Source of the DNA: Pseudomonadota bacterium
GTDB taxonomy: Bacteria; Pseudomonadota; Gammaproteobacteria; UBA1113
DNA: 64,000 bases
Assembly (NCBI GenBank): GCA_021778015.1
Contig: JAJYCX010000007.1
Span: forward strand, 17,078 to 81,077
Direction: 5' to 3'
Shown: positions 4,068 through 52,716 of the stretch, piece by piece
Layout: each line of letters starts with the position of its first letter
Numbering within the stretch: the first letter of the stretch is position 1
Notes under the pieces: model-generated
Seen by the model: the letters and a program-made list of their open reading frames with translations, nothing else
Databases searched by the model: none
Told to the model about the DNA's origin: nothing
Position numbers and translations under genes: made by a program

Positions 4068-4252
4068 TTGTCATCCTCAACCAGGCCACGAGGCCGCAGT
4101 CGGGGATCCAGTAAAAAACTTAATTTGAAACTGGATTCCCGACTGCGACTAGAGCCTGTCCTCGGTACTCCGGGGAATGACAAAGCTTCGATTAAAATCT
4201 ATAGCATTCATCAAGATCTCGCATCTTCAAGTACGAAGAGTATATAACCGCC
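4068..4252. repeat. REP-2 family composite palindromic element (copy F)
   Basis: gtcatcctcaaccaggccacgaggccgcagtcggggatccag…ctggattcccgactgcgac…ggaatgacaaagcttcgattaaa…atctcgcatcttca. It is shared with copies at 8116, 19234 and 22507. The tail contains cgaagagtatat, which is also the MITE-1 terminus. Confidence 0.65.
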
Positions 4253-4667: not shown

Positions 4668-5233
4668 AATTCAAATACCTGACTACTGTCAATCACATCG
4701 GCCATATATGTTAACATTTCCAATGAGGCATCATGACGATCTTTGTGGCTACTGCCGCAGCAATCGCTGATTACAGTTACTTTATAACCACGATCGTGCG
4801 CATCGCGTACAGCCGACTGTACAGCAACCTCCGTTGATACGCCGGCAATATAGATCTCTCCCACTCCATTATTTCTTAATATCTGATCCAGATTCGTTCC
4901 ATAAAAGGGATTGACAGCATTCTTAAAGATGATCAATTCATCTTCTTGATAGTCTAAATCGGAAATAATTTCAGTACCCCAAGTACCTCGTTGCAGCTTT
5001 TTATATTCTTTAGCTTTTGAAAAAATGGGCGATTTTGTATTGGCCTCTAGATAGTTTTTATCAAAGGCCACAATAACCCATATGACCAACCAATTTTCCT
5101 TGCGCGCATGAAAAATCACCTTGTTGAGTTTAGCAACCGATTGATTTTTAGCCAACATGGGATAACAACCAAAGGCACCATCTTTATGACAAATTTCGTT
5201 TATATAATCTATTATGATCAAAGATTTTTTCAT
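4664..5233 (-). CDS. Isochorismatase-family cysteine hydrolase (YcaC/PncA-like)
   Basis: 189 aa. MKKSLIIIDYINE…, …IYIAGVSTEVAVQSAVRDAHDRGYKVTVISDCCGS matches the isochorismatase fold and its catalytic Cys region. Confidence 0.7.
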   Translation of the reverse strand: MKKSLIIIDYINEICHKDGAFGCYPMLAKNQSVAKLNKVIFHARKENWLVIWVIVAFDKNYLEANTKSPIFSKAKEYKKLQRGTWGTEIISDLDYQEDELIIFKNAVNPFYGTNLDQILRNNGVGEIYIAGVSTEVAVQSAVRDAHDRGYKVTVISDCCGSSHKDRHDASLEMLTYMADVIDSSQVFEF

Positions 5234-5265
5234 TCTATTCTCCTGTAATAAGGGTTAAACCTTTG

Positions 5266-5745
5266 TCAATACGGCGTACCATCCTTATGCGTAAAAATCC
5301 AGACACCCTCCTGGAGTACAGCAGCAATATCATCGTCAGGATAAGTCACTTGATCGCCAGCAGTTCGATCACCCACTTCCAAAAAGCACACAGTCTCCTT
5401 GGTTTGATTGATAAGCTGATGTGCTCTACCACTACCGGCCTTAAAACCCGCACACATGCCTGGCGCTAATACCATTTCTTTGTCTCCACTTTTTAAGGTA
5501 GGGCGCCCCACCAACACATAAATGAATTCATCCTGTTTGGAATGTGCATGATACAAAGCGGACACGCCACCGGGTTCTAGTTGCGTCAAATTCACACCAA
5601 AATTGTTTAGACCAAACATATCGCCTAAACGACGTTTCTCACGCCGATCCATCATTGAGGCAAAAGGCTCAGGATAAACGGAACGCGTTTTGTTAGGAGC
5701 CACTTCTGCTGCCAACAAAGCATCGGGATAGTTAGATGCTGTCAT
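5266..5745 (-). CDS. Cupin-domain protein
   Basis: 159 aa with G-x5-H-x-H…G…P-G-x2-H-x3-N-like cupin motifs (LEPGGVSALYHAHSKQDEFIYVLVG… and LAPGMCAGFKAGSGRAHQLIN). Confidence 0.6.
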   Translation of the reverse strand: MTASNYPDALLAAEVAPNKTRSVYPEPFASMMDRREKRRLGDMFGLNNFGVNLTQLEPGGVSALYHAHSKQDEFIYVLVGRPTLKSGDKEMVLAPGMCAGFKAGSGRAHQLINQTKETVCFLEVGDRTAGDQVTYPDDDIAAVLQEGVWIFTHKDGTPY

Positions 5746-29036: not shown

Positions 29037-29113
29037 TGGTGCGCCCGGAGAGATTCGAACTCCCGACCGCCTGGTTCGTAGCCAGGTACTCTATCCAACT
29101 GAGCTACGGGCGC
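29037..29113 (-). tRNA. tRNA-Arg (anticodon ACG)
   Basis: The reverse complement GCGCCCGTAGCTCAGTTGGATAGAGTACCTGGCTACGAACCAGG…CTCTCCGGGCGCACCA is near-identical to E. coli tRNA-Arg(ACG). Confidence 0.9.
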
Positions 29114-29118
29114 ACACC

Positions 29119-29252
29119 ATCCATACTCTTCGCATTTGCTTCTTAGGCTTTGTTGCCTTCGCCCATCTCGCATCAGTCATGTAGGGTACTACACTCCTGA
29201 TGCTCGAGGACTCGGCGCCTCGCCTAAAAACCAACTGCTATGAGCATATCAC
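29119..29252 (+). repeat. MITE-1 family copy C, filling the tRNA-Arg/tRNA-Ser spacer
   Basis: ccatactcttcgcatttgcttcttaggctttgttgccttcgcccatctcgcatcag…caactgctatgagcatatcac. Confidence 0.7.
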
Positions 29253-29260
29253 TCTAAACG

Positions 29261-29353
29261 TGGTGGAGAGAGAGGGATTCGAACCCTCGATGAGGCTATA
29301 AACCCCATACTCCCTTAGCAGGGGAGCGCCTTCGACCACTCGGCCATCTCTCC
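29261..29353 (-). tRNA. tRNA-Ser (anticodon GCU), long variable arm
   Basis: The reverse complement GGAGAGATGGCCGAGTGGTCGAAGGCGCTCCCCTGCTAAGGGAG…GGGTTCGAATCCCTCTCTCTCCACCA. Confidence 0.85.
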
Positions 29354-34851: not shown

Positions 34852-35985
34852 ATGGTTCTAACATTGAAAACTAAAATCTCCCTTTTTCTGTTAGGCTTAG
34901 GCCTAACGTGTGGTTCAATTTACGCTGCACATGGCGATGAAACACCCCTACCGGTATCCAACGATATTAACGTCACCGCACCAGAACAATCAGGCATATG
35001 GTCTTTTGGCGTAACGGCAGTCCTCATGCAACCCGCCAATACGGGCTACAATTACGCTGATAGAACCAATGCTACTGTTCAATTCGCCGGCGGAAACCCT
35101 GTAGCGGAGCCGAGTAATAGCACAAAACCCCTAGTGCTGGATGAAAGCTATTATTGGTGGTTTGGCGCCGATGTGAGCTATGCTTTTCCCGGCAATGGTA
35201 GAGATGTCACCTTAGCGTATGAAGGCTTACACGGCACTAGCACTGACAGTGCCAGTAATAATTATAATAATGACGTACCTCAGCTTAGTGAATACCATCT
35301 TTTACTGAGTGCAATGACTGTCTATCCAATAACCTCTATCCAAGCTGAAACAGACACGCAATACGATGCGGGCGATCTACTCTTTGGCCAAAAATTAGAT
35401 GTAGGCCAGCGCATTCATCTACATCCCTTCATAGGTCTGCGTTATGCACATATCGATGTAAACAATAGCTTTAAGGATACTCTAGAACCTTTCCCTATTA
35501 CCGATAATGGTTATAATGGTGGCAATGAGAGTGGTGAGATAGACTGCACATTTAATGGCATTGGCCCACGCTTAGGCAGCGATGCTAATGTCACTTTGGG
35601 CAATGGTTTCTCTGTACATGGGCGTTTGGGTTTATCTGCACTGATAGGAAGCCAAAAATACAATGAAAGTTATACGCAAACAATCTTAACCAATAACGCT
35701 TTTACTCCACCAACCGTGACCTATACCAAAAACCAGGATAGCGACGCAGAGACGCGGGTTATTCCTGAAATTGATGGTCGCTTAGGATTGAATTATAGCC
35801 ATAGCACTGATTCCAATATGACCTTAGGTCTAGAAGCTGGTTGGCAAGTGACCGATTATTTTCAAGCAATTGCTAATCCAAGCCTAGTAAATGGCAATGG
35901 CAATTCCTTTACACCAGCCCGCCAAGGAAATACGGATTTCGGCCTACAAGGTCCTTATGCGCGCTTACAGTTAGATCTTGCATAG
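34852..35985 (+). CDS. Legionella-MOMP-family outer-membrane porin, paralog 1
   Basis: Signal peptide. WSFGVTAVLMQP, FNGIGPRLGSD…GNGFSVHGRLGLSALIGS, VIPEIDGRLGLNY and FGLQGPYARLQLDLA align by eye with L. pneumophila MOMP (OmpS). Confidence 0.75.
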   Translation: MVLTLKTKISLFLLGLGLTCGSIYAAHGDETPLPVSNDINVTAPEQSGIWSFGVTAVLMQPANTGYNYADRTNATVQFAGGNPVAEPSNSTKPLVLDESYYWWFGADVSYAFPGNGRDVTLAYEGLHGTSTDSASNNYNNDVPQLSEYHLLLSAMTVYPITSIQAETDTQYDAGDLLFGQKLDVGQRIHLHPFIGLRYAHIDVNNSFKDTLEPFPITDNGYNGGNESGEIDCTFNGIGPRLGSDANVTLGNGFSVHGRLGLSALIGSQKYNESYTQTILTNNAFTPPTVTYTKNQDSDAETRVIPEIDGRLGLNYSHSTDSNMTLGLEAGWQVTDYFQAIANPSLVNGNGNSFTPARQGNTDFGLQGPYARLQLDLA

Positions 35986-36025
35986 CTAGAATGTAACAAT
36001 TTATGAATAGGGATGATTTTTAAAG

Positions 36026-37120
36026 ATGAAAAATAAAATTTATTTAGCGCTATTGTGCGTGGCCTGCAGCTCAGCTTACGCCGCCCATGGTAATGAAGCT
36101 CCCCTACCAGTATCCAATGATGTGAATGTCACCGCACCAGAGCAATCCGGTGCTTGGTCTTTTGGTGTGACGGCCGTGTTGATGCAACCCACTAATAGCG
36201 GCTATGAATACGCAATTACCGATCAATTTAATGCAAACGATCCTATAGATCCTTCGGTTTATGGGGATACGATTAAAACTTCCATTCTGAATGAAAATTA
36301 CTATTGGTGGTTTGGGGCCGACATAACGTACGCTTTTCCAGGCAATAGCCGCGATGTGACTTTAGCATATGAAGGACTACACGGCACTACTACCGACAAT
36401 GCCAGCAATAATTTTAACAATGATGTCGCTCAAAGTTCTATTTACTACTCTTTAGTAAACCCTATTACAAATAACGATGTAGCTTCTATTCAAGCCGAAA
36501 CAGATACGCGCTATGATGCAGGCGATCTGCTGTTTGGCCAAAAACTCACTATAGGACAACGTATCCAGCTACATCCTTTCATCGGTGTGCGCTATACACA
36601 TATTGATGTGCAAGACAGTTTTAAAGATACCATGGAGTCGTTTCCTAGTGAAGGTGCTGAAGGAGGAAATGAGAGTGGTAACTTAGGCAGTACCTTCAAC
36701 GGCATTGGCCCGCGCCTAGGCAGCGATGCGGGTATTATTTTAGGCAAAGGCTTTTCCATACGCGGTCGTTTAGGTTTGTCCGCTTTGATAGGTTCTGAGA
36801 AAAGCAATTATAACTATGTTTCTACCTATTTGTTTTCACCACCCAGCACTATCGTTCCCTTTACACAGACCGTAAATCGCGATATTTCATCAAAGACAAT
36901 GGTCGTTCCTGAACTCGATGGCCGTTTAGGATTAAATTATAAACATAGCTTAAATTCTACTATGGACTTGGGTGTTGAAGCGGGTTGGCAGGCAACCAAT
37001 TATTTTCAAGTGATCAATGATCCGATGCTCAGTTCTCCTGGCGGCACACCAGCCCACGATAAATATTCCGACTTTGGTCTGCAAGGGCCCTACGCACGCG
37101 TACAATTGGATATTGCATAA
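36026..37120 (+). CDS. Legionella-MOMP-family porin, paralog 2
   Basis: Same conserved blocks, divergent surface-loop segments. Confidence 0.75.
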   Translation: MKNKIYLALLCVACSSAYAAHGNEAPLPVSNDVNVTAPEQSGAWSFGVTAVLMQPTNSGYEYAITDQFNANDPIDPSVYGDTIKTSILNENYYWWFGADITYAFPGNSRDVTLAYEGLHGTTTDNASNNFNNDVAQSSIYYSLVNPITNNDVASIQAETDTRYDAGDLLFGQKLTIGQRIQLHPFIGVRYTHIDVQDSFKDTMESFPSEGAEGGNESGNLGSTFNGIGPRLGSDAGIILGKGFSIRGRLGLSALIGSEKSNYNYVSTYLFSPPSTIVPFTQTVNRDISSKTMVVPELDGRLGLNYKHSLNSTMDLGVEAGWQATNYFQVINDPMLSSPGGTPAHDKYSDFGLQGPYARVQLDIA

Positions 37121-37133
37121 ACAATAAATAAGG

Positions 37134-38261
37134 ATGATTTCTAAAATGAAGACGAAACTTTTTGTAACGCTTTTAAGCTTAGGTTTGGTTTGCGGCTCAG
37201 CTTATGCTGCTGCGGGTAACGAAGCGCCCCTACCTATGTCCAACGATGTTAATATGACGGCACCGGATCAATCCGGCAGTTGGTCTTTAGGCGTGACAGG
37301 CGTTTTGATGAAACCCACTAATAGTTCCACTAATTATGCTACCCAATTTGATTACACTGTGGATAGTCATGGCAATCATACTAATACTACCACTACGCCC
37401 GAAACGGTAACAGCTGGCTATTATAAATGGTTTGGTGCCGATATCACCTACGCTTTTCCGGGTCATGGCCGCGATGTAACCTTAGCTTATGAAGGTTTGC
37501 ATGGTAGTTCAGCGGATAGTACCACCAATAATTTTGATAATCAGATTCCGCCCCCTGCTACCTATCATTATTTAACAGGCAATATTACTAGCGCAGATCT
37601 TTCTTACATTAAAGCTACAATCGATACACAATACGATGCAGCAGATCTGGTTTTTGGTCAAAAACTCAATGTAGGACAGCGCGTTCAATTACACCCTTTT
37701 ATGGGTTTACGTTATGCACGCATCGATATAGAACAAAAATTTAATGAAACTTTTGAAGCATTCCCCAACGATGGCAATTTTGGTGGTAATGCGGATGGTA
37801 AAGCTGACTCTACCTTCAGCGGCATCGGACCTCGCTTCGGCAGTGATGCGGGTCTTATACTGGGTCAAGGATTTTCTCTACGCGGTCGTTTAGGCTTGTC
37901 CGCATTGGTAGGTTCTCAACAATACACTGTAGCCTACAATCAAAACGTTATTGATAGAGATGTATTTAACTTACCTCCGACGTCGCATGAGTCCACCAAG
38001 ACACTGGATGATGGCTCAGTCACTCGTATTATTCCAGAAATCGATGCCCGCTTGGGTTTAAATTATACCTATAATTTTGCCTCTAAAACGGCGCTGGGGT
38101 TTGAGGCAGGTTGGCAAGCAACAGATTATTTGCAAGCAGTCAGCAATAATTCAGTTTCCAATACATCTAAAGACGATTTTGGTGTCGAGCCGCCACATTA
38201 TGAATATTCTAACTTTGGATTACAGGGACCCTATGCACGTATACAACTGGATGTGGCATGA
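37134..38261 (+). CDS. Legionella-MOMP-family porin, paralog 3
   Basis: Same conserved blocks, the most divergent of the three. Confidence 0.75.
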   Translation: MISKMKTKLFVTLLSLGLVCGSAYAAAGNEAPLPMSNDVNMTAPDQSGSWSLGVTGVLMKPTNSSTNYATQFDYTVDSHGNHTNTTTTPETVTAGYYKWFGADITYAFPGHGRDVTLAYEGLHGSSADSTTNNFDNQIPPPATYHYLTGNITSADLSYIKATIDTQYDAADLVFGQKLNVGQRVQLHPFMGLRYARIDIEQKFNETFEAFPNDGNFGGNADGKADSTFSGIGPRFGSDAGLILGQGFSLRGRLGLSALVGSQQYTVAYNQNVIDRDVFNLPPTSHESTKTLDDGSVTRIIPEIDARLGLNYTYNFASKTALGFEAGWQATDYLQAVSNNSVSNTSKDDFGVEPPHYEYSNFGLQGPYARIQLDVA

Positions 38262-43017: not shown

Positions 43018-43507
43018 CTGCCTTATTTCTGTAAGCTATGCTTTAGACAGTGATCAACAGCAACAACTGCTGATTTCTTCAGACACGGCCGATTTAAACA
43101 GCCAAACTGGCGTTGGGGTCTATACGGGTAATGTCACCATCGATCAAGGGACGACTCACGTGCGTGGCGATAAAGTCACTTCCTATAGCGCAAATAATAA
43201 AATCACTCAGGTTGTCGCGGAGGGGGGGCAAAAACAACAGGCACGTTATGAAAGCGTCATCGATCCAAACAAGCCGCCGTTAATCGCTACCGCTGATACC
43301 ATCAAATTTTTTCCTGATAAAAACTATGCCATTTTGTTAGGCCATGCTTATGTGCAGCAAGGAGCAAATAGCATTGCAGGTGAGCATTTAGAATATGATT
43401 TGACTAATAAAATCTTAAAATCAATCACCGCTCCTAGTGCCAAAGCGGTACGTACCCGCATCGTCATTGATCCCAACAACCTACCTAAGATGGACCAAAA
43501 ACCATGA
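42977..43507 (+). CDS. lptA: LPS transport periplasmic protein LptA (start taken at MIQLKRNLL; the ORF begins at 42944)
   Basis: Signal peptide and OstA-N fold …[20 protein letters not shown]…. Confidence 0.75.
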
Positions 43508-44235
43508 CCCAGAAAACATTACGCGCCGTTGCGTTAGAGAAAAGTTACAAGAAACGTACTGTGGTTAAGAATGTTTCTATGGAAATCAACAGCGGTGAAA
43601 TCGTCGGCTTATTAGGTCCAAATGGTGCCGGTAAAACAACCAGTTTTTACATGATCGTCGGTTTAGTAAGGCCTGATCGCGGTCAAATTTTTATAGATGG
43701 AGAAGAAATTACCCATCTGCCTATACATGAACGAGCACATAAGGGTTTAAGCTATCTACCCCAAGAAGCCTCTGTATTTAGAAAACTAACGGTGTCACAA
43801 AATATTTTAGCTATATTAGAATTGCAAAAGCATTTAACAGACGAAGAACGGCAACATCGCCTCAAGGAATTATTGAATGAATTTCACATTTATCACATAC
43901 GCGATAATTTAGGCATTAGCCTATCGGGAGGTGAAAGACGCCGTGTTGAAATTGCCCGTGCACTGGCAACCAGCCCTGCTTTTGTATTATTGGATGAACC
44001 TTTCGCTGGCGTGGATCCCATTTCCGTCGTCGACATTAAACGTATTATCACACATTTATGCAGTAAAAAAATCGGTATTTTAATTACAGATCACAACGTA
44101 CGTGAAACTCTAGATATCTGCGAGCGCGCCTACATAGTCAATGAAGGCGAAATGATTTGCCAAGGCCCACCACAAGTGATTCTATCCGATCAAAAAGTAC
44201 GCGAGGTGTATCTAGGTGATGAGTTTGACTTATAA
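43504..44235 (+). CDS. lptB: LPS export ABC transporter ATPase LptB
   Basis: 243 aa with Walker [10 protein letters not shown], signature LSGGERRR and Walker B VLLDEPF. Confidence 0.9.
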
Positions 44236-44238
44236 AGC

Positions 44239-46533
44239 TTAATCACTGCTATGCTGATTATCAGCACTGGTAATATTGACTGAAATAATAAGTTCTGAAA
44301 GCTTCTTTAGATCTTTATCTAACAGATGAATACAAATATCCATAGCATGCCCCCGTAAGCTTTCTTTTTCCAAGATGCTTTTAGAAACATAAATATAAGG
44401 CGGACATTGCGTATATGGAAAATGAATATTATGATCCCCAAATTTCCACTGAATAAAGGCTACATTTTGCACGGATTTTTTTTCAAGCCATATCTTTAAT
44501 TTTGCTTCCTTTGGCCACGACAGCTCTATTACATTTGCATCTAGCCCATTTTCAGCTATTATAACCATGGGTGGTTCAAGCAAAATATTGGCTAAACCGC
44601 TGCTAAAATAATGATTGAGATTTTTAATCCAACGAACACTATAGTCGCGATAAGATTCATTCTTTTTAATGTCTTGTGGGTAATAGTTTAAGAAGTTCGC
44701 TTTTTCTATAGGTAATGGGGGTAACCAATCTTCTGGATTCTGAGGCCACCCTGCGGCACAATAATAAGCATCCCTAAAGCTGTTTGGCGCAAGAAATTTA
44801 GCGATATTAAAATAACTACTCCATTCATCCAAGCCCATATTTAGACAATAGCTATAAGCAATTTCAACCAGTTTCTTGTTAAAAATCTGCGGCATATGAG
44901 AATTGTAAAGCTTGGTATCATAGCCTGAACTCTTTAAAAAGAGTCTGGTTTTCCAACAACATCTATCATAACTGGTTGGATTGCTATAATCTCCAAACCA
45001 TATGTCTTTAGAATCACAGTGAAAATATCCAGTATGAACCCCATTATTTAAATAAAAAGAAACATCTATATCTTCAATCACAACATAATCATCATCAAAG
45101 GCAATAAAATTTTCCGCTATTATTTCAGAAGCATATAATTTTTGGCGCAGTAAAGAATTTCTTTTAGCATGATCTTGAGGCAAGATTGAATTATTCAATA
45201 GGGCAAGCTCATCCAGAATAGAGACTTTAATAGGCAATGTTTTTAACGTGTTTCGAAAACTCTCTTGCATGTCATTAGGACACGCAACTATTATATGGTC
45301 TATGAATTTCATATGTTCACAAGCGCTTTGGGCCGAAATAAAGCACTTTTCAATATTATTGCTAATATAGACTGCCTGTGTAGGAAGCAACATCATACTA
45401 CTTCTGTCTTCTAACTCAAGAAAATATTTAAGATAACCATTCGCCGCACTATGCCAATTTAAAGCAGAGAAATATGAGATCTTTTCTTTTTCAACTCGAT
45501 ATTTTTCTGGATCACTCAACTCGTCTAAAGCTCGTACAACCGAATCAGCATCCATCTGATCAATAGGATAGTTTTTACTTTGCGAGACCTCTTTGAATAC
45601 CTCAATAGGTGAAGTCACAGATATAGCCCCATAATACAATGACTCTACGATTGGAAGACCAAATCCTTCTTGCAAAGAAAGGTTAATAGTACAAAAGCAA
45701 AGCCTGTATAATGCTTGCAAAGAAACATCATTGGCATTATTAAGCATGAATAATTTTTTATTGAATAATGGATGATTTTTGATTCTTGATATTAAGTTAG
45801 AACTATTCCACCCAACCTTACCGACTATAACCAGGTTTAGATCAGGGATTTTTTCAAGCCATTGTTCAAAAGATTCTAACAGTAATGAAACATTTTTTCT
45901 AGGTTCAACTGTTCCCACAAATAATACAAATTTCCCTAAATGATTTAAAGTATAGGCTTCTTCATTATAGGTCGTGTCATCTATGGCCTCTTTAAAATCG
46001 GCACCTAATGGAAGCACTTCTACAATAGGTCTCTTAACAGCATATTGTTCGGCTAGAGCTAATAGATCTGAGCGCACAGCATGAGTTGTCGTTATCCAAT
46101 AATCGGTATAAATAAGGGATGCCGAAAAGTTTTCATGCCACCGAATAGCAGAGTTAATTTGGCAATATTCCGGGAATTGAGCTGGAATTATGTCATGACA
46201 TAAGCTGATGATTTTTACATTTAAGGATTTTAACTGTTCATATGTTCTTATACTGGAAGTACGATCAGACCATCTGGCATCTATTTCGAAAAAGGAATCG
46301 TTTGGCTGAAAATCGACTTGCCTATTTGATTTAAAATCAGACAGATTAACTTTATTGGCTTCAGAAAAAATGAAAAGTTGTTCCTCATTTAACTCATAGA
46401 ATATACCTTTATGGTTATATATCAGTTTAAAACCTCCATGACGATATAGGTTCAAAGAAATATTACGTACAACACGCTGTATGCCTGTTTTTAGATTAAA
46501 GATAAAAGTATTGCTGACATTAATATAAATCAT
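44239..46533 (-). CDS. Bifunctional glycosyltransferase: N-terminal GT4 (GT1-fold) domain plus a ~380-aa C-terminal domain of unknown family with a DDD(Y) motif
   Basis: 764 aa. The GT4 block is …FVGTVEPRKN…EGFGLPIVESL. The C-terminal half has no family I can name. The gene is AT-rich by eye. Confidence 0.6.
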   Translation of the reverse strand: MIYINVSNTFIFNLKTGIQRVVRNISLNLYRHGGFKLIYNHKGIFYELNEEQLFIFSEANKVNLSDFKSNRQVDFQPNDSFFEIDARWSDRTSSIRTYEQLKSLNVKIISLCHDIIPAQFPEYCQINSAIRWHENFSASLIYTDYWITTTHAVRSDLLALAEQYAVKRPIVEVLPLGADFKEAIDDTTYNEEAYTLNHLGKFVLFVGTVEPRKNVSLLLESFEQWLEKIPDLNLVIVGKVGWNSSNLISRIKNHPLFNKKLFMLNNANDVSLQALYRLCFCTINLSLQEGFGLPIVESLYYGAISVTSPIEVFKEVSQSKNYPIDQMDADSVVRALDELSDPEKYRVEKEKISYFSALNWHSAANGYLKYFLELEDRSSMMLLPTQAVYISNNIEKCFISAQSACEHMKFIDHIIVACPNDMQESFRNTLKTLPIKVSILDELALLNNSILPQDHAKRNSLLRQKLYASEIIAENFIAFDDDYVVIEDIDVSFYLNNGVHTGYFHCDSKDIWFGDYSNPTSYDRCCWKTRLFLKSSGYDTKLYNSHMPQIFNKKLVEIAYSYCLNMGLDEWSSYFNIAKFLAPNSFRDAYYCAAGWPQNPEDWLPPLPIEKANFLNYYPQDIKKNESYRDYSVRWIKNLNHYFSSGLANILLEPPMVIIAENGLDANVIELSWPKEAKLKIWLEKKSVQNVAFIQWKFGDHNIHFPYTQCPPYIYVSKSILEKESLRGHAMDICIHLLDKDLKKLSELIISVNITSADNQHSSD

Positions 46534-47108
46534 AATATTACCTTGATAAAACCGACATTTGAAAACTCAACGCTATTTTTTATCGCTAATATTGCAGGCA
46601 TGTAATTTTTCCTTCTCTTACAAACATAGCCATAAAATCTCATATCTTCATCGCTTGGCAATCGCCTTAAATAAGCATAAAATATACACTTTATATTTTG
46701 ATCTACATCGTCATTCTTATCCCAAGACAAATAATCTGTAGTTCGCAATTGTTCAACCTTTAAAACATCAAGCGAAACATCCATTTTTTTTAACATAGAT
46801 TGAAGAATAGAATTATATAAAGCATCTTGCTCCACTGAAAATACCGTTGAATCTTCTGGTCTTTGCGAGTTATCTATAACAAAGGAATGCCTATCCAAAA
46901 AAGAAACATATTGCTTGAACAAACGATAGTATTTATATACGTTGGGTTGGTCTTTCAACTTCTTATAAAGAAATCCCCCCAATTTTGGATTGACAAAAAT
47001 CAAGCGAACAAATAACCTCTGAAGTCTTAAGGTAAAACGCAAAATAGAAATAATAAAACCTTTAATTTTTGATTTTATCAAGAAAAGTGTTTTCTTTATT
47101 TTACGCAT
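46530..47108 (-). CDS. Hypothetical protein (192 aa) with a basic N-terminus, inside the glycosyltransferase island
   Basis: ORF with 4-bp overlaps to both flanking GT genes. Very AT-rich by eye. Confidence 0.4.
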   Translation of the reverse strand: MRKIKKTLFLIKSKIKGFIISILRFTLRLQRLFVRLIFVNPKLGGFLYKKLKDQPNVYKYYRLFKQYVSFLDRHSFVIDNSQRPEDSTVFSVEQDALYNSILQSMLKKMDVSLDVLKVEQLRTTDYLSWDKNDDVDQNIKCIFYAYLRRLPSDEDMRFYGYVCKRRKNYMPAILAIKNSVEFSNVGFIKVIL

Positions 47109-48222
47109 AATAAGCCCTTATCTTTTTCTTAAAGAGTTCTTCGTAAGCCAGTATCATATCAGAACTTTGAAAATAATCTAAAAACCTTTGTCTGGCCGCT
47201 TTTGAGAAAGCCTCGCATTTTGTAGCATCTTTATCTAAATCTAACATAGCCGAAAGCAGCGCATCAGAATCCCTTGCCGCCACAACCAAGCCCGTCACTC
47301 CAGCATCATTGACAAATGAAGTTCCTGTTCCAAGCTCAGTAGAAATAAGCGCTTTACCTGCACGCAAGCCCTCTACTAACGTTAGACAATATGCCTCTGA
47401 ACGTTCTGATGCCGGAACAACGACTGCTTTACAAAGTGAAAACAAAGCAGTTTTATCTTTTTCACTGACAGAGCCTAGGAAAGTTACATTATGTAAATTA
47501 TGTTGTTCAGCTAATTTCTTTAATTTTTCTTCCTCTGGACCGCTGCCAGCAATTACGATAGGTAACGATGTATTTTTAACCGCTTCTAACAAATAGCTAA
47601 GTCCTTTATAGTAACGAAGCACACCCAAAAACAAGAAAAAATTCTCTCCCACCTTAGCCTTCCAGAAGGTATGCTCTTGTAAACAGTCCTCAAATTTAGC
47701 CCCATCTTGCAATCCCAAAGAGATAACATAGGTCTTATCCAGATAGAGGTTTAAAACCTTACTGGATTGTCGATATTTTTCTGAGGTAGCAATGATTGCC
47801 GTTGCTCGGCGGAAGAAAAGATGCATCAACGGTTTATAAATTTTGTTGAGGTTTTTTTGACGGACAATGTCTGACTGATACGTTATTATATAAGGTTTAT
47901 ATAGACCTACCAAAAGAGAAGTTACGTCGGCCCAAGGCCAAGGGAAATGGAAGTTAATAATATCATGCTCCCTGCTTAATGCTTTAAATTTACGGACAAA
48001 ATCTAAGCTGACAGGGCAAGAGGCAAAATTAGCATTTGCTGGACAGTAATGAATTACCGCTTCGTTCTCTTTACGGGTATATGCTTTTTTAGTGCTTGTC
48101 GTCACCAACAAAGTGCATTGATGTCCCATCTCAATAAGACCTGCCATCAACACACGTATTACTTCCTCCACACCACCGCGAGACTCTGGGTAATAACTCT
48201 TATAAATAAAGAGTATTTTCAT
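47101..48222 (-). CDS. Glycosyltransferase family 4 (GT1 fold)
   Basis: 373 aa, GT4 C-terminal signature …VPASERSEAYCLTLVEGLRAGKALIST…. Confidence 0.7.
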   Translation of the reverse strand: MKILFIYKSYYPESRGGVEEVIRVLMAGLIEMGHQCTLLVTTSTKKAYTRKENEAVIHYCPANANFASCPVSLDFVRKFKALSREHDIINFHFPWPWADVTSLLVGLYKPYIITYQSDIVRQKNLNKIYKPLMHLFFRRATAIIATSEKYRQSSKVLNLYLDKTYVISLGLQDGAKFEDCLQEHTFWKAKVGENFFLFLGVLRYYKGLSYLLEAVKNTSLPIVIAGSGPEEEKLKKLAEQHNLHNVTFLGSVSEKDKTALFSLCKAVVVPASERSEAYCLTLVEGLRAGKALISTELGTGTSFVNDAGVTGLVVAARDSDALLSAMLDLDKDATKCEAFSKAARQRFLDYFQSSDMILAYEELFKKKIRAYYA

Positions 48223-48252
48223 TTATACCTCCATTTCTATTGTAGAAATTTT

Positions 48253-49698
48253 TTAATTTATTTTTTGAAAGCAACGCCCGTACACATCTTCATAACGCGT
48301 AATATCATCTTCACCCAAATAATGCCCTGTTTGTACTTCTACGAGTTCTACTATTTGTTTTGTATTATTGAAAAGTCTATGTTTAGTTTTAGCAGGTATA
48401 TACGTGGACTGGCCTGTTTTTAGCTGCAATATCTGCTTATCATTGAGCACCTGAGCCATCCCTTTGGTAATCACCCAATGTTCTGCCCTGCATTCATGAC
48501 TTTGTAAAGATAGTCTCTGACCAGGATAAACAGTAATACGTTTTACTTTAAACTCTACCGTTTCCATCAATACCTCATAAGTTCCCCATGGGCGTTTCAC
48601 AGTTTTATGATTCAAAACCTCTTCTCGTTTTAAAGATTTTAACTTTGAAACCATTCTTTTAATCTCTTCGCTTTTCTCCTTATTAGCAACCAATACAGCA
48701 TCAGCGGTTTCAATCACTACGCAATTCTCCATCCCGATTGCTACGACTAATCTGTTTTCTGAATGTATGTAAGAATCTCGTACATCGTCCAAAATAGCAT
48801 CGCCAACTTTAACAGTACCATTTACATCCTGTACTTGTACCTTGGCTTTCCAAAGTGATGCCCATGACCCAACATCGCTCCACTGTGTTGAAAGTGGCAC
48901 AACCACTGCTTTTTGTGTATGCTCCATAATTGCATAATCAATAGAATCACTGCGACAAGAATTAAAAATACCTTCTTCAAATCTCAAGAAGTCTTTGTCC
49001 TCCTGTGCACTTTGAAAAGTTTTTTGGCAAGACTCAAAAATATCTGGCGCAAAGCGTTTTAATTCGGCTAAGTACACTTCCGCTTTAAATAGAAAAATGC
49101 CACTATTCCACAGATAGTCTCCACTTTCATAAAATGCTCGTGCGCGCTGAATATCTGGTTTTTCAATAAAGGATTTTATTTGGTAACCCTGCCCTTCCGT
49201 TATCACTTTTCCCAACTCAATGTGTCCATAGGCAGTTTCTGGCTGATGTATAGTGATACCAAAAGTAACTATATGCCCTTTATTCGCAAAAGCTAATCCT
49301 TGTTCAATCGAATGGGCAAAAGCTTCACTATCCTCTAACAGATGATCTGAAGGCAATACAAGCAAAATGGCATCTTCATACTCTCGTTGCGCTGCCAAGG
49401 CAGCCAATGCGATAGCCGGTGCTGTATTTCGTCCTACTGATTCAAGAATAATCTTCTGCGGTTGAATAAACTGTTCTCGCAGCTGCTCCGCAGCCAAAAA
49501 TCGATGTTCCTGGTTGCATACCACAATGGGAGGCAAAATGGATAACGCATTTAAGCGCTGTAAGGTTAGTTGAAAAAGACTGGGATCTGCTTCTATTTGT
49601 AAAAATTGTTTGGGCATTAACTCACGAGACATAGGCCATAAACGGGTGCCACTGCCTCCTGATAATAAAACAGGAACCATAGAACTTGCTTCTTTCAT
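48253..49698 (-). CDS. manC: Mannose-1-phosphate guanylyltransferase / mannose-6-phosphate isomerase (type II PMI, ManC/CpsB)
   Basis: 481 aa. VPVLLSGGSGTRLWPMSR nucleotidyltransferase motif and C-terminal cupin PMI domain. Confidence 0.85.
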   Translation of the reverse strand: MKEASSMVPVLLSGGSGTRLWPMSRELMPKQFLQIEADPSLFQLTLQRLNALSILPPIVVCNQEHRFLAAEQLREQFIQPQKIILESVGRNTAPAIALAALAAQREYEDAILLVLPSDHLLEDSEAFAHSIEQGLAFANKGHIVTFGITIHQPETAYGHIELGKVITEGQGYQIKSFIEKPDIQRARAFYESGDYLWNSGIFLFKAEVYLAELKRFAPDIFESCQKTFQSAQEDKDFLRFEEGIFNSCRSDSIDYAIMEHTQKAVVVPLSTQWSDVGSWASLWKAKVQVQDVNGTVKVGDAILDDVRDSYIHSENRLVVAIGMENCVVIETADAVLVANKEKSEEIKRMVSKLKSLKREEVLNHKTVKRPWGTYEVLMETVEFKVKRITVYPGQRLSLQSHECRAEHWVITKGMAQVLNDKQILQLKTGQSTYIPAKTKHRLFNNTKQIVELVEVQTGHYLGEDDITRYEDVYGRCFQKIN

Positions 49699-49862
49699 AA
49701 TTGAGTTACCTTCAAGAAATTATAATTTTAAATTTAGAGCAAGTATTATACAAAATAGGCTCTTTTTTGTCAATCTTTTTTATAAAAAAAAACCTTTTGG
49801 GGTAATTATGGTCAAATATTGATCAATTTATCGTTGAAATAGGAGGCTTGCTCCCAGAGAAC

Positions 49863-50981
49863 TCAAATGAGTTTGTGGATAATTTTATTAAATTGCTCGG
49901 CCGCATTGCCCCACACAAAAAAGCGCCCCCGTTCTAAGCCCTTTTCCTTTAATTTTTGCCGAATAGACTGATTTTCCAAAAGGGTTTGTAATCCGTCCCT
50001 AATGCTACCCACACTGTAGGGGTCTATTAGACAGGCTGCATCTTGAACTATCTCTGCCATAGCCCCAATATTAGAAGTAATAACAGGTGTTCCCATAGCC
50101 ATGGCCTCAACAAGAGGTAAGCCAAAGCCTTCATATAACGAAGGAAAAGCCAGACAATATGCCGCCTGCAGCAAATAGCTTACAATTTCTTCTGGTAGAT
50201 AATCATAGATTAAAACGAAATTCTCGAGTTTCTTCTCTTGAACAAAAGCTTGCAAATTAACATCCCCCCACCCTTTTTTACCAACAATAACCAATTTAAA
50301 TTGTTCTCGTAATTCAATGGGTAAATTTCCATAGGCTTCAATGAGGCGTCGCTGATTTTTGCGTGGTTCTTGAGTGCCTAGAGACAAAATGAAAGATTTG
50401 TTTTGGTGCAAGTTGCTATACGCAGCGGATACCGTACTGCTAGAATTGATCATATGTACTGGAGCTAAATAGGTAACATGAATTTTATTTTCGGGTACCT
50501 TTAAAAAATGCATAAGATCTTGCTTAGTAGTTTGTGATACACAAATAATAGCATCCGCATTTTTAACTGAATGTGGCATCAACAATTTTTCATGGTAATA
50601 ATTTCTTTTATCCATCGTTTCCGGACAGATTTTCCAAACTAAATCATGTATAGTCAACACATAGGGAATACCTGGGATTTTTGAATACGGTAGTATGTGC
50701 CGAGGTGACCAAAATACATCTAAATCCGTTTTCTGCAATTGTTTTGACAAAAAAAATGTCCGCCATAGATGTGGCCAAAGAGGGAGGTTTTGCATGGCTA
50801 CGGGAGGAAATTTGACCGGAAACGGTAATGAAACAGTGGCCAGCGGTTTAGGTAAAAATCCTACAATGGAGGTTTCAGCTGGTTTCAATGATTCCAGCAT
50901 TTTTTGCGTGTAAAAGCCAATACCCGTCAGTGGTTGCACCAATGAGGAAAGATCAACACCCAATTTAATTTTCGAATGCAT
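49863..50981 (-). CDS. Glycosyltransferase family 4 (mannosyltransferase-like)
   Basis: 372 aa. …LGTQEPRKN…YEGFGLPLVEAMAMGTPVITS… GT4 signature. Confidence 0.7.
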   Translation of the reverse strand: MHSKIKLGVDLSSLVQPLTGIGFYTQKMLESLKPAETSIVGFLPKPLATVSLPFPVKFPPVAMQNLPLWPHLWRTFFLSKQLQKTDLDVFWSPRHILPYSKIPGIPYVLTIHDLVWKICPETMDKRNYYHEKLLMPHSVKNADAIICVSQTTKQDLMHFLKVPENKIHVTYLAPVHMINSSSTVSAAYSNLHQNKSFILSLGTQEPRKNQRRLIEAYGNLPIELREQFKLVIVGKKGWGDVNLQAFVQEKKLENFVLIYDYLPEEIVSYLLQAAYCLAFPSLYEGFGLPLVEAMAMGTPVITSNIGAMAEIVQDAACLIDPYSVGSIRDGLQTLLENQSIRQKLKEKGLERGRFFVWGNAAEQFNKIIHKLI

Positions 50982-51198
50982 AATATAGAACCTTTAATCA
51001 ACAAAATCTCAATAACAGATAAACACAGTGTACACAAAAATAGCTCTATAGTGTTAATTTGGTCATAATTATGGTATTAGCATATCTTCAAAGCGGCTCA
51101 TTCACTGAATGCCTAAATATGAGCATAGGCCCAAACAACTGGCATATTGGTAAAAAAAATGATATATTTAACTTAATATCATTCATTCGGAGGCTATT

Positions 51199-51477
51199 AT
51201 GCAAATCACATTTACTGGCCATCATTTAGACATTACCCCCCCTCTAAAAGACTTTACCATGAAGAAATTGGACCGCTTGGAGCGCCATTTTAGCGACGTT
51301 ATTAGCGTTGCTATCACCTTTAAAGTTGAAAATTTGAACCAAATTGCGGAAGCAACGGTACATGTTCCAGGCACACATATGCATGCCAGTGAAAAAACCG
51401 ATGATATGTACAGTGCTGTAGATGGCTTAATCGATAAATTAATGCGTTTATTAAAAGAACATAAAGAAAGATCTTAG
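51199..51477 (+). CDS. hpf: Ribosome hibernation-promoting factor (short HPF/YfiA type)
   Basis: 92 aa, MQITFTGHHLDITPPLKDF…, in the conserved position after lptB/(rpoN). Confidence 0.85.
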   Translation: MQITFTGHHLDITPPLKDFTMKKLDRLERHFSDVISVAITFKVENLNQIAEATVHVPGTHMHASEKTDDMYSAVDGLIDKLMRLLKEHKERS

Positions 51478-51484
51478 AGAATCA

Positions 51485-51560
51485 GCCCTCCGCTTCCTAA
51501 CGGCCGCGGCTCACTTACAAACGGATGAACCGAGCCGCGACCGTTAGGGAGCGGAGAGGG
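51485..51560. repeat. Long imperfect hairpin (~30-bp arms) after hpf. Possible terminator or REP.
   Basis: ccctccgcttcctaacggccgcggctca…tgaaccgagccgcgaccgttagggagcggagaggg, followed by cgcttttttac. Confidence 0.5.
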
Positions 51561-51595
51561 AAAGTATAGTTACGCTTTTTTACTTTAGGGAATAA

Positions 51596-52447
51596 ATGAA
51601 AGAAATGCGCGTTATTATTGTGACCGGACGGTCTGGATCTGGAAAAAGTATCACCCTACACCTATTAGAAGACCTAGGTTATTACTGCATTGATAATTTA
51701 CCCGCAAGCTTGTTACAAAGCTTGACCGCACATGTGCAGAAAACATACCAAAAAATAGCCATTGGCATTGATGCCAGAAACCCTATTACCGATTTAGAAA
51801 GCTTTCACCATTGGATAGAAAGCTTTAGAACTTCCGGACTACGTTGTGAAATATTGTATCTAGACGCCAGTGATGATGTCTTAATCAAGCGTTTTAATGA
51901 AACTCGTAGGCGTCATCCTTTAAGTTCCGATCATCGCTCATTACAAGAAGCCATCGCTTATGAGAAAAAACTATTAGATCCCTTAGCCCATTTAGCCGAT
52001 CTGGTCATAGATACAAGTTTATTGTCACAACATAAATTGCGGGATATTATTTCCAATCGCGTTGAGCCCAAAGCACATGCATTATCTTTATTGATACAAT
52101 CTTTTGGCTTTAAATTTGGCGTGCCGGTAGACAGTGACTTCGTTTTTGATGTACGAGTACTTCCTAACCCTTATTGGCACAGCGAATTGCGCCCTTATTC
52201 AGGCTTGGAAGAACCTATACAAAAATTTTTAAATGAAAAACCAGAAACCCATGCTTTATTAATGGATATCGAGCATTTTCTAATGAATTGGTTACCCAAA
52301 TTTGAAAACAATAATCGGGCTTACATGACAGTGTCCATAGGCTGCACCGGTGGGCAACATCGCTCTGTCTATATTGCAAAAATGCTGTATGATGCTCTTA
52401 AACAGAAACACGAAATGGTATTACTGCGCCACCGAGAGTTGATCTAG
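51596..52447 (+). CDS. rapZ: RNase adapter protein RapZ (YhbJ)
   Basis: MRVIIVTGRSGSGKS Walker A and RapZ C-terminal domain. The start may be Met 51605. Confidence 0.85.
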   Translation: MKEMRVIIVTGRSGSGKSITLHLLEDLGYYCIDNLPASLLQSLTAHVQKTYQKIAIGIDARNPITDLESFHHWIESFRTSGLRCEILYLDASDDVLIKRFNETRRRHPLSSDHRSLQEAIAYEKKLLDPLAHLADLVIDTSLLSQHKLRDIISNRVEPKAHALSLLIQSFGFKFGVPVDSDFVFDVRVLPNPYWHSELRPYSGLEEPIQKFLNEKPETHALLMDIEHFLMNWLPKFENNNRAYMTVSIGCTGGQHRSVYIAKMLYDALKQKHEMVLLRHRELI

Positions 52448-52449
52448 CC

Positions 52450-52716
52450 ATGCTGATAGAAAATATTACGCTCGGCAATAAGTTAGGTCTACACACTCGA
52501 GCCGCTGCTAAATTGGTTGAATTATCCAGTCGATTTAATAGTCAGATTGAACTCAGTCTAGACTCTAAAAAAGTCAATGCCAAAAGCATTTTAAATGTTA
52601 TGTTATTGTCTGCAGGCAGTGGTTCTCAATTGACAATCACCATAGAAGGTGCCGATGAGAATGAAGCCATGACAGCGTTGAAAGCTTTATTTCACAGTAA
52701 TTTTGGTGAGGAATAG
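52450..52716 (+). CDS. ptsO: Phosphocarrier protein NPr (HPr-like)
   Basis: 88 aa, active-site His region GLHTRAAAKL. Confidence 0.85.
   Translation: MLIENITLGNKLGLHTRAAAKLVELSSRFNSQIELSLDSKKVNAKSILNVMLLSAGSGSQLTITIEGADENEAMTALKALFHSNFGEE

Follow-up and report, generated by a model that had tools for sequence, protein, structure and literature searches.

A variable cargo slot at the former rpoN position between lptB and hpf carries a putative mannose-type glycan module in a Pseudomonadota bacterium

Results and discussion

A variable slot between lptB and hpf

In a Pseudomonadota bacterium (GCA_021778015.1, contig JAJYCX010000007.1), the position between lptB and hpf that holds rpoN in an outgroup is occupied by a 6.9-kb island of five genes for a putative mannose-type surface glycan. 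The window referred to throughout is the whole stretch of DNA analysed, 64,000 nt (positions 17,078-81,077 of the forward strand of the contig). It is reasonably probable that rpoN, ptsN and hprK were lost from this locus long ago, that the vacated position then became a slot for exchangeable cargo and that the slot now holds a mosaic mannose-glycan module. From the lptB side, the island encodes a 764-aa glycosyltransferase fusion, a 192-aa protein (orf192), a glycosyltransferase of family 4 (GT4) of 373 aa (GT373), ManC and a 372-aa GT4 (GT372). A preliminary description of the window had lptB ending at 44235, hpf starting at 51199 and five opposite-strand genes between them, and these coordinates are exact.

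A search of 185,579 species genomes with RapZ gave 39 loci, onto which the window proteins were mapped and from which the junctions were read; L numbers below designate loci. Loci with RapZ identity ≥ 85% to the window are referred to as the clade. The hpf upstream sequences of the window, L007, L054, L008 and L010 were compared by eye, and the left junction was compared with those of L007, L009 and L054.

The glycan island is present in the window-type loci (L001-L006, L050-L053 and L057-L063), whose flanks are about 100% identical to those of the window. In L054 (flank identity 90-93%, LptB protein identical), the junction contains instead one antisense gene (2.0 kb, 36% GC), which encodes a 611-aa patatin-like phospholipase with a cyclic nucleotide monophosphate (cNMP)-binding domain. 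L007 (about 91%) is empty, with 66 nt from the lptB stop to the hpf start. A patatin of the L054 type (77% amino acid identity over the 91 aa available) is found in L008 (about 85%), where the lptB side lies off the contig, while L009 (82-85%) has only 241 nt with a palindromic element resembling a miniature inverted-repeat transposable element (MITE). In L010 (78% flank identity), the contig ends within a GT372 homologue that is divergent from hpf and of which the N-terminus is present (72% identity over 43 aa). The hpf-rapZ-npr block is inverted, and rpoN is missing, in L011 (67-76%), and in L012 (about 77%, rapZ only) two PilY1-like genes of ~1,100 aa lie upstream of hpf, with no lptB within 10 kb. 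All the cargoes seen at the slot are antisense to the flanks.

The LptB protein is 100% identical between the window, the empty L007 and the patatin-carrying L054. In clusters at 90% identity, LptB has 21 members and RapZ 24, whereas ManC and orf192 of the island have only 2. The lptB/hpf junction is a multi-state variable cargo slot and not the site of a one-off insertion. Because the same island junctions recur, identically, in at least eight independent assemblies, the island structure is not a mis-assembly. Among the island-positive assemblies are GCA_027456045.1, GCA_027456005.1 and GCA_021809255.1, while the slot is empty in JAJXVU01 (BP5.bin43) and holds the patatin gene in the SRR21360389 assembly.

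A second island-bearing variant, L051, is colinear with the window and has 26 differences in 6,963 nt. Its hpf-rapZ-npr block is 97-98% identical to that of the window, compared with 99.4-100% elsewhere, and this dip is a sign of recombination beside the island. At the island itself, neither an integrase or transposase nor a tRNA nor terminal direct or inverted repeats were found, the only tRNAs in the window being at 29040-29353. The content of the slot has probably been exchanged by homologous recombination through the conserved lptB and hpf flanks, rather than by a mobile-element integrase. A pair of junction sequences (CACTGCTAT and AACTGGCAT, 6 of 9 positions matching) was considered as a target-site duplication and rejected as chance, since the right copy belongs to hpf upstream sequence common to all variants. 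L055 and L063 were rejected as further slot variants, as the junction comparison identified them as fragments of the window-type island.

Strain-variable loci between conserved genes are well known, as at galF-gnd in Escherichia coli and dexB-aliA in pneumococcus. Like these O-antigen and capsule loci, the lptB/hpf slot has alternative gene sets at one core-bounded site, a lower GC content than its surroundings, no integrase and evidence of flank recombination. In contrast to them, the site is the vacated rpoN position in an lpt/hpf locus, part of the cargo is not related to glycans (patatin-like phospholipase and PilY1-like proteins) and the island, which has no initiating transferase, transporter or manB, is not self-sufficient.

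The patatin-like cargo (L054 4361-6196, and also L008 453-872) is a cNMP-binding protein with weak matches to PADLOC models of phospholipase/Pycsar-type effectors. No cyclase is adjacent, and the protein may be either a stand-alone effector or a phospholipase of the Legionella type. The two PilY1-like proteins of L012 (2467-9259; RapZ identity 85%) are encoded in tandem and have a beta-propeller, one of them also with a VWA domain. In L009 (~5116-5356), lptB is directly followed by hpf-promoter-like sequence, then by the palindromic element (~170 nt) and then by the ribosome-binding site of hpf. The contig end of L050/L061 (GCA_027456005.1, DAIDVU010000157.1; L050 ~17079-18168) is an inverted duplication, in which a truncated rapZ is followed by reversed hpf; the most likely cause is faulty assembly at a breakpoint that varies between strains. 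Island contigs also break at or near the island edges in several metagenomes (L005, L006, L055, L062, L063 and L064), consistent with island-positive and island-negative strains being together in the same samples.

Loss of rpoN, ptsN and hprK from the locus

In L014 ("Legionellales bacterium SAT3"; 57% RapZ identity) the gene order is lptB, a 453-aa protein with the Sigma54 AID, CBD and DBD domains, hpf, PTS_EIIA_2 (PtsN), Hpr_kinase_C and rapZ. All outgroup loci with both lptB and hpf have a gap of 1.5-2.1 kb between them, the size of rpoN; such gaps were seen in Guyparkeria, Halothiobacillus, Woeseiaceae and Ectothiorhodospira. None of the clade loci sampled has rpoN, ptsN or hprK at this locus, and tblastn of the window and all close loci, with RpoN, PtsN and HprK from outgroup loci as queries, gave no match at E ≤ 10. 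As the clade members all lack the three genes while L014 keeps them, it is clear that the loss of rpoN, ptsN and hprK from this locus preceded the diversification of the clade. The starting point would have been an ancestral lptB-rpoN-hpf-ptsN-hprK-rapZ-npr locus, of which hpf, rapZ and npr are kept in canonical order in the window. The absence of rpoN and ptsN, given without limits in the preliminary description, is shown by tblastn and the hpf-rapZ spacer for the locus and the window only. Of the two histories which that description offered, insertion into a lineage that had already lost rpoN is favoured over replacement of the gene, since L007 and L009 have lptB next to hpf without rpoN, the sampled clade members all lack the three genes at this locus and L014 retains them.

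The sigma-54 promoter pattern TGGCAC-N5-TTGCW was tried as an indirect test for RpoN. There are six matches in the window where 2.9 ± 1.6 are expected, so that the pattern is not significantly enriched and is uninformative about RpoN; the lone exact match (28025-28040) lies inside an opposite-strand ORF.

The 118-nt spacer between hpf and rapZ contains no ORF and neither ptsN nor hprK, only a palindromic repeat, which fills the space occupied by ptsN and hprK in outgroups. Copies of this repeat were found in L007 (9912-9962) and L048 (4805-4867 and 11617-11646). Since a relative has copies elsewhere, the repeat is dispersed and not a terminator specific to this locus.

Sigma-54 has been lost in host-associated Legionellales such as Coxiella burnetii. 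For C. burnetii only RpoD, RpoS and RpoH are discussed in PMC4064990, while Berkiella, of the same order, keeps rpoN (PMC9803151). The window resembles this type of loss in having the canonical locus without rpoN in a Legionellales-like lineage. It differs in that the absence is seen at the level of the locus and window, and in that Berkiella, Legionella and L014 in the order keep rpoN. Nor is the window organism established as Coxiella-like, which had been put forward; its taxonomic markers (three Legionella_OMP paralogues, DUF3573 and SAT3 as the nearest named relative) hint at a Legionellales-like bacterium. The clearest hint is provided by the Legionella_OMP (PF05150) paralogues, members of the Legionella major outer-membrane protein family, three of which lie in tandem at 34852-38261 and have 65-79% DNA identity in those repeated segments that were compared.

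The island is a mosaic of two modules

The island has 36.4% GC, compared with 40.8% for the window, and is its lowest-GC 6.9-kb stretch. Per-gene GC and GC at third codon positions (GC3) differ between the island and the other 58 genes (Mann-Whitney, p about 0.01). A clearly low GC is confined to the 764-aa gene (34%) and orf192 (30%), whereas GT373, manC and GT372 (39-40%) are like the neighbouring hpf and rapZ (38-40%). AT-richness, which had been judged by eye, is thus genuine but moderate, and does not extend to three of the five genes.

GC and GC3 split the island genes into the GT372-ManC-GT373 trio and the pair formed by orf192 and the 764-aa gene, the pair having the lowest GC of the island. 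The trio is also set apart by its relatives, since its proteins have 60-73% amino acid identity to mannose clusters of the lineage in L046-L048 and L065. These clusters have a GT372-like GT4 near manC, accompanied in most of them by a GT373-like GT4, manB and an MsbA-like ABC gene; the full set cannot be seen in L049 and L066, which are too short. GT373 has 60-65% identity to the manC-adjacent GT4 of L046, L047 and L048, ManC has 68-73% identity to ManC of L046-L049, and GT372 has 63-70% identity to the GT4s beside the MsbA-like ABC gene and manB (L046-L048, L065 and L066). The island is therefore a mosaic of two modules, GT372-ManC-GT373 and orf192 with the 764-aa gene. A GDP-mannose-type glycan module does occupy the rpoN position, as had been suggested; its acquisition as a single horizontally transferred block does not fit this mosaic, in which three of the five genes have 60-73% identity to those of relatives.

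Two families of small intergenic repeats are common to L048, the window and L007, and so the mannose clusters come from the same broad lineage. L065 and L054 are from one low-complexity sample (SRR21360389, contigs _5 and _66). A relative at about 91% flank identity thus keeps its mannose genes beside the MsbA-like ABC gene, and the L065 copy is only 63% identical to GT372 of the window. The GT372-like proteins of the MsbA-linked clusters are 68-85% identical to each other, and GT372 of the window is an outgroup to all of them. The possibility that L048 comes from the same genome as the window, which would make its trio a paralogous second copy, is unlikely, because its GT cluster is single-member and on two contigs, only one of which is from an island-holding sample, while the island is in at least eight assemblies.

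Gene organisation of the island

The coordinates of the genes, domains and junctions are given in Table 1. Upstream of lptB lie lptA, lptC, kdsC, kdsD and minC. All three GT4 proteins exceed the Pfam gathering threshold of PF00534 (Glycos_transf_1), and gathering thresholds were likewise applied to PF11380, PF20102 and PF13946, with the curated cut-off for TIGR01479. ManC is a bifunctional mannose-1-phosphate guanylyltransferase/mannose-6-phosphate isomerase (GMP/PMI), which supplies GDP-mannose. The GT373, orf192 and 764-aa genes overlap in turn by 8 nt and 4 nt. A TTGACA-17-TATAAT site upstream of manC suggests two transcription units, GT372 alone and manC-GT373-orf192-GT764, the latter driven from this promoter-like site. 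The promoter of GT372 presumably lies in the island-specific spacer at the right end.

Table 1. Position of the lptB/hpf slot, its contents and its flanks in the window
Feature	Position	Strand	Evidence or remark
lptB	43504-44235	+	TIGR04406 equivalog, 389 bits; left flank of the slot, last gene of kdsD-kdsC-lptC-lptA-lptB
Left junction	44236-44238		3 nt between the stop codons of lptB and the convergent 764-aa gene
764-aa GT4 fusion gene	44239-46533	-	Glycos_transf_1 at residues 195-346
C-terminal all-beta domain (residues 656-755)	44269-44568	-	AlphaFold2-model secondary structure; extent of BLASTP alignments
Stealth-like, DUF6492-related GT-A-type domain (residues 380-652)	44578-45396	-	Invariant motifs FDDDY (D480-D482) and SHMPQ (H546)
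GT-B (GT4) domain (residues 1-375)	45409-46533	-	Pfam Glycos_transf_1, 77 bits, residues 195-346
orf192 (192 aa)	46530-47108	-	Small basic protein; no family match
GT373 (373-aa GT4)	47101-48222	-	Pfam Glycos_transf_1, 112 bits, and Glyco_transf_4
ManC (GMP/PMI), 481 aa	48253-49698	-	TIGR01479 equivalog, 627.5 bits (cut-off 372.95), residues 7-475
Sigma-70 consensus promoter-like site	49745-49773	-	TTGACA-17-TATAAT, 12/12 positions, in the 164-nt gap upstream of manC; pattern match only
GT372 (372-aa GT4)	49863-50981	-	Pfam Glycos_transf_1, 123 bits; divergent from hpf
Right-end spacer, island-specific	50982-51137		Junction comparison
hpf upstream region	51138-51198	+	Conserved, common to all slot variants
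hpf	51199-51477	+	Pfam/NCBIfam HPF match
Palindromic repeat in hpf-rapZ spacer	51482-51564		Spacer sequence
rapZ	51596-52447	+	RapZ match, 355 bits
npr (HPr/NPr)	52450-52716	+	HPr family match

The 764-aa enzyme and its small partner

The N-terminal domain of the 764-aa protein has PimA entries (GDP-mannose-dependent mannosyltransferase) as its best solved relatives (E about 2e-5). Residues 380-764 match no Pfam or NCBIfam family, and the C-terminal DDDY half could not be named in the preliminary description. A Stealth-like, DUF6492-related fold can now be assigned to it. The query has more than 1,000 database matches; of the best 120, most have a length of 730-850 aa, and 113 were confirmed to have the C-terminal domain. 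Outside the window population (99% copies), no homologue has above 37% identity. The all-beta domain at the C-terminus is conserved only in the ~25 closest homologues. Family members P0030 and P0033 are fused to methyltransferase domains.

An alignment of the C-terminal domain in 24 sequences has invariant residues in the FDDDY (D480, D482) and SHMPQ (H546) motifs. The profile made from the domain matches the Stealth catalytic domain of GlcNAc-1-phosphotransferase (GNPTAB) with E = 1.2e-3, FIAFDDDY aligning with FIYLNDDV and SHMPQIINK with AHMPHMIDR. An AlphaFold2 model has a predicted local distance difference test (pLDDT) score of 90, and sequence profile and structure both support the Stealth catalytic fold. 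In region CR2, which has the N-D-D metal motif (N322/D324 in CpsY), the DDD of the window protein aligns to LNDDV of GNPTAB. In CR3, SHMPQIFNK of the window protein aligns to AHMPHMIDR of GNPTAB, H-x-P included; the aligned basic residue, here a Lys, is either Lys or Arg in the family as a whole. PF11380 (Stealth_CR2) does not match the window protein, and its homologues score 16-28 bits, below the threshold of 39.4. For DUF6492 (PF20102) the window protein has no match even at E ≤ 10, while homologues P0003 (26.2 bits) and P0014 (24.1 bits, over the equivalent region) exceed the threshold of 22.9. The Pfam models for Stealth CR1 and CR4 do not match the window protein. The domain is best described, from profile and model, as Stealth-like and DUF6492-related rather than as a member of the Stealth family, because the fold fits and the acidic residues of CR2 and the H-x-P of CR3 align, while CR1 and CR4 are absent and CR3 has a Lys. 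The likeliest chemistry for such a domain would be sugar-1-phosphate transfer.

Characterised Stealth polymerases have been described as single-domain proteins (PMC5974469), and so the fusion of GT-B and Stealth-like domains is an undescribed architecture, yet it is common in sequence databases. The domain resembles the Stealth enzymes GNPTAB, CpsY of Mycobacterium tuberculosis and the capsule polymerases of serogroup A and serogroup X Neisseria meningitidis in that the acidic residues of CR2 and the H-x-P of CR3 align. It differs from them in being fused behind a GT-B domain, lacking CR1 and CR4, scoring below the Pfam Stealth threshold and being nearer to DUF6492. The bifunctional capsule polymerases CslB, Cps1B and Cps7D (PMC5974469) also combine a GT-B with a second catalytic domain and have a predicted phosphodiester link; however, their phosphotransferase domain is TagF-like or GT-B-like and they are found in group 2 capsule loci (PMC5974469).

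Three homologues of the 764-aa protein were viewed in context, and all three lie in a Wzm/Wzt (Wzt_C) cluster with GDP-mannose pathway genes (manC and/or dehydratase-type) and methyltransferases. In Halioglobus (L067), the 746-aa homologue comes after a GT4 (396 aa) and a 198-aa ORF and before wzm, wzt, two methyltransferases and a WbdA-like triple GT4. In Vibrio parahaemolyticus (L068), the 784-aa homologue comes after manC, manB, wzm, wzt, a methyltransferase and a 111-aa DUF4214 protein and before two gmd/rmd-like genes of the GDP-mannose dehydratase/epimerase family. The 726-aa homologue of Vandammella (L069) likewise comes before two gmd/rmd-like genes, and ahead of it are manC, wzm, wzt and a 587-aa methyltransferase. 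A small ORF precedes the homologue in two of the three.

There is no Pfam, NCBIfam or PADLOC match for orf192, and PF13946 (DUF4214) has no match at E ≤ 10. Homologue searches recovered only orf192 itself in a word-index search of 5.8 billion proteins and by HMMER in 1.84 billion representatives, and a single-sequence AlphaFold2 model has a pLDDT of 52. The C-terminal 91 residues of orf192 align to the 198-aa Halioglobus ORF in the same position (pairwise BLASTP, E = 3e-5), and the V. parahaemolyticus ORF in that position is a DUF4214 protein (25.3 bits, gathering threshold 23.2). The gene is intact in both island variants, and its 4-nt and 8-nt overlaps with its neighbours suggest translational coupling. 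Given its alignment with the Halioglobus ORF and the DUF4214 match of the Vibrio one, orf192 is probably a real, very divergent DUF4214-like small partner of the 764-aa enzyme, and its coupling and intactness agree with this.

Predicted product of the island

The island has the capacity for GDP-mannose synthesis and encodes three GT4 domains and one Stealth-like domain. It would build or extend an oligo- or polysaccharide containing mannose: ManC would make GDP-mannose, and the GT4 enzymes would add mannose-type residues to a lipid-linked acceptor on the cytoplasmic face. Either lipid A-core or an undecaprenyl-linked O-chain would serve as this acceptor, with export depending on genes at other sites in the genome. 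The proposed role of the Stealth-like domain is the addition of a terminal cap or of a sugar joined by a phosphodiester link. Our best guess is that the product is a variant of the lipopolysaccharide (LPS) outer core or O-chain, which would provide a strain-specific surface epitope.

In the polymannose/D-rhamnan clusters of E. coli O8/O9a, the gene order is manC-manB-wzm-wzt-wbdD-wbdA-wbdB-wbdC. The likeness of the island to these ABC-dependent clusters lies in ManC with several GT4 proteins and in the homologues of the 764-aa protein that occur by wzm, wzt (Wzt_C) and methyltransferases. The difference is that the island has no wzm/wzt, WbdD-like terminator or manB. To our knowledge, the O8/O9 machinery, as characterised, includes no Stealth-like domain.

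Evidence against the proposed history and function

Several observations weigh against the proposed history of the slot or the function suggested for its present cargo. The five island genes include no initiating transferase, flippase, Wzm/Wzt, polymerase, terminator or manB. As these parts of the pathway are not among them, the island relies on genes elsewhere in the genome, and the acceptor and export route are guesses. The Stealth-like domain could be an ordinary GT-A glycosyltransferase. At CR3 it has Lys opposite an Arg of GNPTAB, the protein to which the alignment was made, and we take this Arg to be the equivalent of R419 of CpsY. R419 is the essential CR3 arginine of CpsY, in which an R419K mutant is inactive (PMC10668966). 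The CR1 (IDVVYTF) and CR4 (CLND/CIND) motifs (PMC10668966) are unmatched, the window protein having QAVYISN (residue 386) and YFNI (residue 574) in their place. Base composition is weak evidence, as the deviation is modest and does not involve three of the genes, which look native. In addition, the hpf junction of L010 (78% flank identity) already bears a GT372-like gene. Similarity on the right side of the island restarts near 51122 for L054 and L008 and near 51138 for the empty L007, so that ~16 nt of right-junction sequence are shared by the window with L054 and L008 and are missing in L007. Because of the L010 gene and this shared sequence, the empty state of L007 could be a secondary deletion and a glycan locus could be of long standing at the junction.

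These last observations bring in an alternative history, which we regard as possible although distinctly less probable: that a glycan locus is ancestral at lptB/hpf, having been installed when rpoN was lost or having displaced it, was passed on vertically while diverging fast, and later disappeared from L007 and L009 by deletion and gave way to other cargo in L054, L008 and L012. The GT372 homologue of L010, one of the more distant members, is in the same position and orientation, the shared right-junction sequence fits a deletion in L007, and GT372, ManC and GT373 have near-native GC. An old resident locus is harder to reconcile with a 764-aa enzyme that has homologues of ≤ 37% identity outside the population, and an orf192 that has none at all. 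It also sits poorly with island clusters of 2 members where the flank proteins have 21-24. Finally, the relative at ~91% flank identity keeps the trio beside the MsbA-like ABC gene, its copy being 63% identical to GT372, and GT372 of the window is an outgroup to those copies.

Rather than an LPS or O-polysaccharide module, the island could be a conflict (anti-phage) or protein-glycosylation system, a reading that we consider very unlikely. GT372 passes the Pfam GT4-conflict model (37 bits, gathering threshold 26), but this match overlaps a much stronger generic Glycos_transf_1 match. Defence genes are often found in variable hotspots, and the L054 cargo, a cNMP-binding patatin, has the weak Pycsar/phospholipase effector matches given above. 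However, ManC with several GT4 proteins and the Wzm/Wzt contexts of the homologues point to polysaccharide synthesis, and the defence reading was dropped because none of the five island proteins matches a PADLOC model.

Least probable of all is a classical mobile island or a module of a phage or an integrative and conjugative element inserted site-specifically at the 3' end of lptB, since the GC below that of the surroundings, the insertion placed precisely between the stop codon of lptB and the promoter region of hpf and the presence/absence polymorphism among close relatives are set against the lack of any integrase, transposase, tRNA or flanking direct or inverted repeats found there, the unrelated cargoes at the identical site and the resemblance of three of the genes to genes of the lineage.

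Wider relevance

The proposed history, an old loss of rpoN, ptsN and hprK followed by use of the position as a cargo slot, does not overturn current understanding; it is a well-resolved, moderate finding. What the slot holds in the window is a fairly ordinary set of strain-variable surface-sugar genes. The locus provides a concrete case in which a conserved operon position became a tolerated site of accessory-gene swapping after loss of a global regulator. The family of GT4 and Stealth-like fusions, which is large, lacks specific annotation and often follows a small ORF (a DUF4214 protein in at least one case), is labelled "glycosyltransferase family 1/4" in databases and probably makes phosphodiester-linked glycans. 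Strain-level variation in LPS or O-antigen bears on host and phage recognition of uncultured Legionellales-like bacteria.

More tentatively, the GT4 and Stealth-like fusion with its DUF4214-like partner might represent a new and widespread module of ABC-transporter-dependent O-polysaccharide pathways, and the vacated rpoN site a dedicated exchange hotspot. If so, the phosphodiester-linked sugar could be a chain-terminating cap read by the carbohydrate-binding domain of Wzt, giving a new form of O-chain termination or decoration, and the site would swap host-interaction cargo (glycan epitopes, patatin-like phospholipase and PilY1-like adhesins) by flank recombination.

Other features of the window

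Two 99-nt inverted repeats (15193-15291 and 17999-18097; 91% complementary) bracket a 2.7-kb segment which looks like a repeat-bounded insert. It contains a 656-aa ORF (15914-17884; 36% GC, GC3 27%) with no Pfam family. A MITE-like family of intergenic repeats of ~130 nt is present in both orientations (1318-1452, 14670-14798, 29123-29249 and 58359-58408), and also in relatives (L007 11142-11420 and L048 2808-2936). A GC-rich palindromic element of ~50 nt (TGTCATCCTCGACCAGGCCGCGAGGCCGCAGTCGAGGATCCAG), resembling repetitive extragenic palindromic (REP) sequences, has at least three intergenic copies (4069-4117, 19272-19324 and 22504-22556).

A very AT-rich gene (9911-11119; 32% GC) encodes an AAA_14/DUF4143 ATPase. 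It lies within a low-GC stretch at ~3-12 kb, together with genes for two transporters (EamA and MFS) and an HTH_3 regulator, and this stretch may be another accessory region.

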